Source of the DNA: Candidatus Altiarchaeota archaeon
Lineage (GTDB): Archaea > Altiarchaeota > Altiarchaeia > IMC4 > QMZM01
Assembly (NCBI GenBank): GCA_016931955.1
Contig: JAFGDV010000041.1
Location: 1 to 35,424 of the forward strand
Length of the DNA stretch: 35,424 nt
Reading direction: 5' to 3'
Part shown: positions 147-25,199 of the stretch, one piece after another
How the letters are laid out: every line of letters starts with the position of its first letter
How positions within the stretch are numbered: the first letter of the stretch is position 1
Notes under the pieces: generated by a model
Databases searched by the model: none
What the model was told of the DNA's origin: nothing
Seen by the model: the letters and a program-made list of their open reading frames with translations, nothing else
Translations under genes and position numbers: made by a program

Positions 147-340
147 GGATCTGCGAAGCAGATCCCTTTTTCTTTTGGGGTGATGAGGCCTGCTAGCCTC
201 AACTCAGACAAGATGCATAGCATCTTGCTGATGATAGCACTTTTCTTTATAAGGGCACCTTGTGCCCTTATCAACCCCCTCTCCTCTTACGTTTTCTTTT
301 GGGGTGATAGCACTTTTCTTTTTCTAAAAGAAAAGGGCTA
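147..340 (-). repeat. Hairpin-rich repeat trailer downstream of tRNA-Gly
   Basis: Hairpins at 147-165, 185-200, 204-231, 249-271 and 308-340. Direct repeats of 17 bp at 168-184/292-308 and 232-248/305-321. Two 13-mers are shared with the tRNA-Val trailer. Confidence 0.8.
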
Positions 341-414
341 TGCGGCCGCCGAGATTTGAACTCGGGTCGCAAGCTTGGCAAGCTCGAGTGATAACCAGGC
401 TACACTACAGCCGC
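341..414 (-). tRNA. tRNA-Gly (anticodon GCC), intronless, CCA not encoded
   Basis: Reverse complement GCGGCTGTAGTGTAGCCTGGTTATCACTCGAGCTTGCCAAGCTTGCGACCCGAGTTCAAATCTCGGCGGCCGCA folds as a cloverleaf, with anticodon loop TTGCCAA and T-loop GTTCAAAT. Confidence 0.97.
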
Positions 415-466
415 ATGGGTCTGTGTTGGGTACTTATTATGGATGGAATAGATAAATATTGATAGA

Positions 467-23246: not shown

Positions 23247-24668
<1,422 letters not shown>

Positions 24669-24709
24669 TTTATAAACTTATAATTTCAAAGTCTAAATAA
24701 CGCTCCCAT

Positions 24710-24783
24710 GGGCCCATAGTCTAGTTGGTTATGACGTCGCCTTTACGAGGCGAAGATTGCCGGTTCGAATCCGGCTGGGCCCA
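24710..24783 (+). tRNA. tRNA-Val (anticodon TAC), intronless, CCA not encoded
   Basis: Acceptor stem GGGCCCA/TGGGCCC; anticodon arm TCGCC-TTTACGA-GGCGA; T-arm GCCGG-TTCGAAT-CCGGC. Confidence 0.97.
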
Positions 24784-24918
24784 TAGCCTTCAGCCTTTCT
24801 TTTCAGGGAAAAGAAACGCTGGCGAAAGAAAAAGGAATTTGCCTGCGGCAAATTCGCCGATTCTTTTGGTGCAGCTTTTCTTCTTAAGAAAAGGTGCTTC
24901 GCAGTCCGGCTGGGCCCA
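24770..24918 (+). repeat. 121-bp inverted-doublet hairpin element between 14-bp direct repeats of the tRNA-Val 3' end
   Basis: TCCGGCTGGGCCCA at 24770-24783 and 24905-24918; hairpins at 24791-24821, 24835-24855 and 24871-24897. Confidence 0.85.
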
Positions 24919-25199
24919 AACCTATACTGTAGGTTTACGCCAGGGATCTATCTTCGCTCACGCTCGATAGGTCTGACGACTTTCTTTTTCGTGCACGTTT
25001 TTCTTCACGGCTAAAAGCCGTTAAATAATCTCATCAGGCCTAAACTCCTCTTTTAGTAAAATTGACTAAAATAAAAGGGATCTGCCGAAGGCGGATTCAA
25101 AGGAGGGTTGGGTTGATAAGGGAGGGAACGTAGTTCCCACACTTATTGGGTGATTTATTTTTATTTAATCCATTATTTTATCCTAATTTGTGGTGTAAA

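Follow-up and report, generated by a model that had tools for sequence, protein, structure and literature searches.

On balance we lean towards reading the 121 nt at 24784-24904, directly behind the tRNA-Val(UAC) gene, as the youngest insertion of a non-coding, non-autonomous miniature element, a mosaic of hairpins of the MITE or REP/BIME kind that would be mobilised in trans and would duplicate its target. The window, by which we mean the whole stretch of DNA analysed (35,424 nt), is contig C14 of an Altiarchaeota genome (G000; 1.55 Mb in 46 contigs, 92% complete). An earlier note on this DNA had proposed a non-coding, non-autonomous insert, and this is borne out by a direct repeat derived from the target and by a multi-copy family, of which the Val(UAC) copy is a young and clean example.

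Structure of the insert at tRNA-Val(UAC)

The ARAGORN and Rfam calls place the edges of the tRNA-Val(UAC) gene at 24709/24710 and 24783/24784 on the + strand, and the gene is intact (Table 1). The 14-mer TCCGGCTGGGCCCA is found at 24770-24783 and again at 24905-24918, with a start-to-start distance of 135 nt. Even with 2 mismatches allowed, the window holds no match beyond these two exact copies (0.20 expected; two or more in 0 of 100 shuffles). This agrees with the earlier note that the last 14 nt of the tRNA are repeated 135 bp on. Read against the tRNA, the repeat consists of T60 (the last base of the T-loop), the 3' strand of the T-stem, the 3' strand of the acceptor stem and the discriminator base. 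The neighbours of the gene are ordinary by Pfam (NUDIX, GAPDH and HisG). Of the ORFs of the window, seven were scanned with Pfam. They were assigned to these three families, to a flippase-like protein and a family 4 glycosyltransferase, and two had no significant family, one of them with only a sub-threshold thioredoxin-like match; for these seven ORFs, the statement that the window holds no mobilising enzyme is correct.

The arms of the first hairpin of the insert (24791-24804/24808-24821) are 14 nt long and 93% complementary, those of the second (24835-24843/24847-24855) are 9 nt long and perfect, and those of the third (24871-24882/24886-24897) are 12 nt long and 92% complementary. Folded as DNA, the 121 nt reach -31.5 kcal/mol, as against -17.5 +/- 2.8 kcal/mol for 200 shuffles (z = -5.07). 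The description of the insert as an inverted doublet stands in so far as units A and B are inverted relatives, while their likeness is only moderate (unit A against the reverse complement of unit B gave a local alignment score of 28, which was reached by 1 of 1000 mononucleotide shuffles). Partial copies of the 135-bp interval are present on other G000 contigs; the best partial match is between the first 73 nt of the insert and G000:C24:27273-27346 (91% identity), a stretch that follows a tRNA-Gly(UCC) end copy. The H2 type of hairpin has 28 regex matches in G000, and its arm variants change on both sides (TCG/CGA, CTG/CAG, TTG/CAA). The B type of right end is also found at the tRNA-Arg(UCG), Met and Phe copies and behind tRNA-Arg(UCU) of G031, a genome of another family, where the B module is near-identical to that of G000. 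The older mosaic beyond the second repeat copy contains a B-like fragment (24981-25006), an H2-like hairpin (25077-25098) and an H3-like hairpin (25111-25146).

Rfam 15 covariance models gave only tRNA matches at gathering score in the window. Five H3-bearing loci gave, apart from tRNAs, only two weak matches. Both (E 0.8 and 0.99) fell far short of gathering score; the one lay at another place in its locus, the other on the strand opposite a tRNA. Several readings of single modules were dropped: a K-turn or L7Ae site, since the 3' strand as read off the sequence has no GA; a C/D-box sRNA in the S module, with boxes poorly placed on the same kind of reading; and H3 as a promoter, since its spacing to the tRNA start changes with loop length. 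The word TTGAT, a target word of the ISDra2 type, occurs inside H3, and this reading was likewise dropped, as no Y1 transposase was found in G000.

Table 1. Features of the tRNA-Val(UAC) insert, its module family and other loci referred to in the text. Positions are those of the window unless a contig is given.
Feature	Position	Strand	Remarks
tRNA-Val(UAC), intact	24709..24784	+	ARAGORN; Rfam RF00005, 72.6 bits
Direct repeat, copy 1	24770..24783	+	tRNA positions 60-73, within the working gene
Inserted element, 121 nt	24784..24904	+	unit A, central hairpin H2, unit B
Unit A hairpin	24791..24821	+	T-rich arm, 3-nt loop, A-rich arm; starts after left-end word TAGCC
A-rich linker GCGAAAGAAAAAG	24822..24834	+	present in other copies too
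Central perfect hairpin H2	24835..24855	+	GAATTTGCC/GGCAAATTC
T-rich linker	24856..24870	+	mirrors the A-rich linker
Unit B hairpin	24871..24897	+	inverted relative of unit A
T-loop-like word TTCGCAG	24898..24904	+	abuts second repeat copy
Direct repeat, copy 2	24905..24918	+	orphan copy of tRNA positions 60-73
Older mosaic of modules of this family	24919..25146	+	sequence reading; matches to other loci
tRNA-Gly(GCC), second tRNA of the window	340..415	-	module mosaic follows at 104-340
Nested insert, 56 nt	249..304	-	A-rich word and H3 hairpin inside another module
Module H1 (unit A)			T-rich/A-rich hairpin following the word TAGCC
Module, A-rich linker			
Module H2			GAATTC-type hairpin; arms vary on both sides together
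Module S			twin hairpin
Module B			'B' hairpin
Module H3			hairpin framed by GGTTGATAAGGG and CCCTTAT
Integrated element, 9.6 kb, at tRNA-Cys (locus L010)	G000:C38:51125-60750		bounded by a 14-15-nt repeat of positions 60-73, 9612 nt apart

Copies of tRNA ends and modules across the genome

The 420-nt regions downstream of the G000 tRNAs, read one by one, show a mosaic of modules of at least five or six recurring types. Identical or near-identical modules sit behind different tRNAs, each with a repeat specific to its own tRNA. Under a strict rule that asks for an exact 11-mer from the tRNA end within the 1.4-kb flank of that same tRNA, 9 of the 21 G000 tRNAs have their own 3' or 5' end copied beside modules, and 14 of the 21 do so by reading; when the flanks were swapped between loci as a control (200 derangements), the mean was 0.23 and the maximum 2. 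The earlier note had said that its proposal would fall if the genome held no other such case. That objection fails, since the element belongs to a multi-copy family.

Downstream copies that start from position 60 were found at Pro (2), Val(UAC), Met (2), Arg(UCG), Gln, Gly(UCC) and Phe, and the tRNA-Cys 3' end is copied 9612 nt away. It can be seen that the 3' junction is fixed in the T-loop: the copy always begins at position 60 or slightly earlier within the loop, and a hairpin (B or H3) and a T-loop-like word stand ahead of it. At Val and Pro the copy stops with the discriminator; at Arg and Gly it runs on for a few nucleotides as far as the TAGCC of the next element, and spacers specific to the locus (ctaa at Arg, taaa at Gly) are duplicated together with the core. 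Left junctions are fuzzy, with 0-12 filler nt ahead of the first hairpin. Upstream duplications of the 5' end were seen at Ile, Glu, Phe, Arg(GCG), Asn, Ser, Gly(UCC) and one further tRNA; their first nucleotide is at about position 1 and their last between 7 and 33 (mostly 15-16), with an H1-like hairpin behind them. The commonest duplication lengths are 14 nt on the 3' side and 15 nt on the 5' side. The arrays are ordered, the youngest element lying nearest the gene, and in the Pro and Met arrays the proximal copies are perfect and the distal ones mismatched. None of the tRNA-end copies read in G000 is followed by CCA.

The second tRNA of the window also has a kindred unit, as the earlier note had noticed: a T-rich/A-rich hairpin of this kind comes after tRNA-Gly(GCC). 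In the mosaic there, the nested 56-nt insert is flanked by a duplication of 17 nt (305-321 and 232-248) within another module. Duplications of 13-17 nt also bracket modules away from tRNA ends, and one of these is about 14 nt of the start of a protein gene. In addition, the 13-mer AGTTAGGCACTAC is duplicated around hairpin modules at four places. This word is intergenic, occurs at 18 places in G000 and often stands immediately before ATG (for example C37:22487/22593, C28:26209/26343 and C23:102092/102193).

Two further observations were made in AT-rich or tRNA-linked DNA. The canonical intron of tRNA-Asn at G000:C31:19172-19318 contains an H1-like hairpin and an A-rich linker of the same family. 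Clusters of short repeats of the TTGATAT/GATATC type lie in AT-rich spacers by tRNA-Val(GAC) (G000:C18 downstream, C23:91.9k, and locus L032 of G002), in two genera.

Tyrosine integrase and the search for a mobilising enzyme

In G000 no match was found for Cas1, Y1_Tnp, RVT_1, TnpB (the zinc-ribbon family) or DDE_Tnp_1, at a completeness of 92%. RAYT or Y1-HUH proteins (PF01797) gave 0 matches, and no partner IS of the kind that serves a MITE was found among the three transposase families searched (DDE_Tnp_1, TnpB, Y1). Such absences are weak evidence, since all the genomes are incomplete MAGs. The only tyrosine integrase of G000 (PF00589) lies inside the 9.6-kb element at tRNA-Cys, which encodes this integrase (403 aa), a DUF3987-like protein of 951 aa and an ORF of 219 aa, whose histone-fold match is sub-threshold (25.8 bits, with a cut-off of 26.4); an ordinary hairpin trailer follows its far repeat.

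The insert might be an integrase-type mini-element, either CIME-like or left over from a deletion, with the 14 bp as its att core. Either a tyrosine recombinase acting in trans would recombine a small attP circle with the T-loop region of the tRNA, or a larger element would have been mostly deleted. Several observations favour this: the 9.6-kb element, with its PF00589 and DUF3987 proteins, is bounded by the same positions 60-73; the locus-specific spacers at Arg and Gly are repeated along with the core; and right ends with a T-loop-like word and a core-adjacent hairpin resemble those of the 9.6-kb element. For integrases the classic pattern is a repeat that extends from the T-loop to the 3' end of a tRNA, as reportedly described by Williams in 2002. 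However, at least 10 tRNAs with differing cores are targeted, together with 5' ends and non-tRNA sites, and near-identical modules bear different cores. The mini-elements and the 9.6-kb element have ends that do not match, no larger element with mini-element ends was seen, and there is thus no sign of the decayed scar that the earlier note had offered as an alternative. That note had also taken the 14-bp repeat as the mark of integrase (att) insertion, a claim that is not supported in that form, since similar repeats are found at all these sites, among them a protein-gene start, the 13-mer intergenic motif and the interior of another module.

The distribution of the enzyme was examined in relatives as well. 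Strong homologues of the C38 integrase are present in 12 of 40 relatives and were not found in G002, G011, G007 and G034; G010 and G024, with 21 and 7 H3 hairpins respectively, have weak matches only. The genomes that are rich in H3 and gave no strong homologue are G010, G024, G034, G002 and G007. Judged by homology, the one tyrosine integrase family of G000 does not track element load in the relatives. The earlier note had suggested co-occurrence with Y1-HUH or tyrosine-recombinase genes as a check; Y1 gave no match in G000. Taken together, these results make an integrase origin unlikely.

The insert and its kin in relatives

By the strict rule, 16 of 38 tRNAs in five related genomes (derangement mean 1.55) and 9 of 37 in five others (derangement mean 0.94) have end copies in their own flanks. 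The H3 pattern has 77 occurrences in 17 of 41 related genomes, and the reversed pattern 0. Among 19 tRNA-Val(UAC) loci from relatives, 16 were evaluable, as two lacked the scripted end motif and one had 16 nt downstream. Two of the 16, in G011 (+112) and G004 (+183), bear different inserts with the same 14-nt repeat; both genomes belong to other genera, and the remaining 14 loci have no such copy. In G024, of another family, the locus also has the repeat, with an ARAGORN tRNA label that is unreliable there. The relatives thus differ in what is inserted at this gene. In G002 a 5' copy (positions 1-15) stands behind the native promoter region, the homologue of about 24660-24708 in the window, and the working gene is found a further 204 nt away.

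The tRNA-Val(GAC) of G010 (locus L059) shows a perfect 83-nt duplication around a single H1 and A-rich module, made up of 62 nt upstream (including a TATA-like word) and tRNA positions 1-21. Because the duplication takes in upstream DNA, the process acts on DNA, which argues against an RNA route.

The downstream flank of the tRNA-Val(UAC) element is shared with none of the relatives examined, and a 24-nt exact stretch of the second repeat with its flank had 0 matches in metagenome contigs. Empty-site alleles and circle junctions, which the earlier note had suggested looking for, were not found for the Val copy in the fragmented Logan contigs of the probable source metagenome. The single unexpected joint in these contigs (24784 to 25101) lies on a contig with 8 differences from the tRNA, and for this reason it probably represents another tRNA-Val locus. 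Two RNA runs of the same study contain almost none of the element words.

The H3 hairpin beyond the order

In species genomes the H3 pattern was found at no fewer than 120 loci. About 100 chance matches are expected in 596 Gb by arithmetic, so that single H3 matches are unsafe. About 50 of the 80 H3 loci that were read are archaeal by record titles (DPANN, Methanosarcinales/ANME, Nitrosotalea and Altiarchaeota), and among the matches listed a tRNA lies within 600 nt in 20 of the approximately 50 archaeal loci, as against 2 of about 29 bacterial ones. At L089 (Methanosarcinales) and L155 (Nanoarchaeia) the hairpin stands between a tRNA and a copy of the 3' end of that tRNA. The 34 ORFs beside H3 at 20 archaeal and bacterial loci comprise 21 of housekeeping families and 13 of no family, with no transposase or integrase among them. 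In viral contigs the H3 pattern has 19 matches, mostly one phage coding sequence, and a 25-nt stretch of the B-like fragment (24981-25005) has 0.

In DPANN loci the antisense form of the hairpin is located inside the T-loop. When 50 nt were removed in silico, ARAGORN changed from no call to tRNA-Val for L082 and L157. These are the 2 of 7 DPANN cases that were cleanly restored; two were called only with an extra long intron, and three were uncalled. When L157 and L082 are folded, a 5-bp helix beside a 3-nt bulge arises from pairing of the palindromic T-loop word with its downstream copy. In these two genes an H3-related hairpin interrupts the T-loop in the manner of an intron.

In an Iainarchaeum MAG (L093), a tRNA anticodon-loop insert consists of an inverted pair of H3 hairpins, antisense and then sense, with a centre of 29 nt; from its sequence, it would be a MITE-like doublet in intron position. 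Clostridia MAGs (L085, L087, L095, L098-L100, L114, L118, L145, L153) carry a dispersed repeat that has the same hairpin words and, after them, a further hairpin, also conserved. The repeat sits between housekeeping genes and may be either a chance look-alike or a related element. Families with the same words in Clostridiales, Atribacteria, Anaerolineales and Saprospiraceae may be chance finds of the pattern.

Mode of insertion and remaining alternatives

Under the reading that we favour, a staggered cut would be made by an enzyme acting in trans. This enzyme would join the right end of the element between positions 59 and 60, where the T-loop ends on its 3' side, and the left end would be joined on the other strand just beyond the discriminator base. 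Gap repair would then copy the intervening 14 bp, so that the tRNA would remain whole and an orphan 14-nt copy would be left behind the element. Since new elements would enter beside the gene, older elements and decaying tRNA-end copies would be displaced outward. The T-rich/A-rich hairpins might afterwards act as terminators. The main problems of this reading are the variable duplication lengths and the fuzzy left junctions. The length is unfixed (13-17 nt, 18-25 nt and up to 83 nt), which is unusual for a transposase of fixed stagger, and a plain target duplication does not explain the T-loop-like words at the right ends.

In another view there is no dedicated element. Template switching, break-induced replication or gene conversion would copy dispersed host repeats, for example terminators, into tRNA loci that had broken or stalled, with conserved tRNA blocks (the T-loop, the 5' end) and resident modules providing homology. 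The variable lengths and the fact that no enzyme was found in G000 fit such a process. Duplications also often end at conserved tRNA blocks (the T-loop, position 1) or at the edge or in the interior of a resident module, as at Met (36 nt into H1), at Arg and Gly (through TAGCC) and in G010, where 83 nt run from the resident A-rich module to position 21. On the other hand, the Val(UAC) copy stops exactly at the discriminator, where no resident module could offer homology, the duplications of 13-17 nt at unrelated sites resemble regular target duplication, and the same hairpin adjoins tRNAs in several phyla. It seems improbable that copying of this kind accounts for the family.

We consider it very unlikely that the inserts are miniature derivatives of casposons. 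In that case the T-loop would serve as the leader for a Cas1-family casposase, whose integration would duplicate 14-15 bp of target. The lengths of mostly 14 nt (3') and 15 nt (5') and the youngest insert nearest the gene agree with this idea. Against it, Cas1 (PF01867), present in 10 of 41 genomes, was not found in the element-bearing G000, G001, G002, G011 and G024, and lengths up to 33-83 nt do not fit. Moreover, in A. boonei (PMC5137440) the duplication overlaps the tRNA by 5 bp only, which is a different register.

It is hardly credible that a spliced T-loop insert came first and that an unbroken gene copy was restored later, the old 3' exon being the orphan repeat: the same hairpin family in DPANN T-loops with the restored tRNA-Val calls at L082 and L157, the 5-bp helix beside its 3-nt bulge, 5' copies that begin at about mature position 1 and the H1-like module in the tRNA-Asn intron speak for it, but no reverse transcriptase was found in G000, no copy is followed by CCA, the G010 duplication includes upstream, untranscribed-looking DNA, and clean restoration was obtained in only 2 of 7 DPANN cases.

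Comparison with known systems

MITEs and the REP, BIME and REPIN sequences are small non-autonomous repeats of bacteria, and SM1-4 of Sulfolobus are MITEs. The G000 element resembles them in being short, non-coding, multi-copy, hairpin-forming and intergenic, with a direct repeat of its target on either side. Its modules form mosaics as in BIMEs and an inverted doublet as in REPINs, although many family members are not doublets. The label REPIN-like is apt in part for the outer units, which are inverted relatives of moderate likeness, and fails for the enzyme, as no RAYT/Y1-HUH gene was found in G000, and for the architecture, which is a mosaic and not a fixed doublet. The element further differs from MITEs and REPINs in that no IS partner with shared terminal inverted repeats was found in G000 among the DDE_Tnp_1, TnpB and Y1 families, and in its long, variable duplications (13-25 nt and more), and from REP, BIME and REPIN sequences in its junction at tRNA loops and its archaeal host.

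With the att sites of tyrosine integrases and with CIMEs it shares a repeat from the T-loop to the tRNA 3' end, tandem arrays and a restored gene. It is unlike them in using many tRNAs, 5' ends and non-tRNA sites and in consisting of gene-less inserts of 45-170 nt; one att site per family with a cognate integrase was not found for the G000 element. Tiny mobile palindromic hairpins, non-coding and in or near RNA genes, are also known as the double-hairpin elements and GC clusters of fungal mitochondria. These differ in being organellar and unrelated in sequence, and they are not known to duplicate tRNA ends.

According to PMC5137440, the casposase of A. boonei makes a target duplication of 14-15 bp beside a tRNA T-loop, and tandem insertion next to the gene was predicted. 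The 14-nt repeat here is of similar length and likewise beside a T-loop. No Cas1 was found in most element-bearing genomes, the register differs from that in A. boonei, and other duplications of the family vary in length. For the bulge-helix-bulge (BHB) introns of Thermoproteales, PMC4090602 speaks of 'intron transposition' on the basis of related short sequences at loops of different tRNA genes (citing Fujishima 2010). The likeness to these introns lies in the same hairpin interrupting DPANN T-loops, where splicing is predicted; unlike a BHB intron, the element in the window has a complete tRNA-Val upstream that needs no splicing.

A search of the literature on casposon derivatives, Altiarchaeota repeats, archaeal tRNA MITEs and intron transposition returned no description of such an element, although supplements might list such repeats, and the word TTGATAAGGG gave unrelated primer matches only. 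This agrees with the earlier note, which knew of no description.

Significance for tRNA genes

In G000, tRNAs and repeat arrays stand at many contig ends (C3, C8, C22, C24, C30, C44, C45, C46, and 1-415 of the window). As so many tRNAs lie there and only 21 were called, it is probably the element repeats that interrupt the assembly. Inserts ring most of the tRNA genes in G000, and the contig breaks at them help to account for the few tRNAs assembled.

The Val insert belongs to a large, apparently undescribed family of tiny tRNA-gene inserts in many archaea, which leave the genes unbroken. A wider reading, to which we give only tentative credence, is that of a pan-archaeal class of mobile DNA that homes to tRNA loops by means of an enzyme outside the known transposase families. 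If this were true, the position of the second junction would decide between a harmless duplication of the tRNA end and an interrupted gene. In the interrupted case the palindromic T-loop repeat would form a splice-site helix like a bulge-helix-bulge. There would then be a DNA-level route to non-canonical tRNA introns, and perhaps to split tRNAs.

The origin of archaeal tRNA introns is called open in PMC4090602 and in a 2026 Asgard preprint (10.64898/2026.10.13.758758). The family shows how DNA can be inserted harmlessly into essential genes without a recognisable enzyme, and the DPANN T-loop hairpins offer a concrete candidate for the way in which archaeal tRNA introns arrive.
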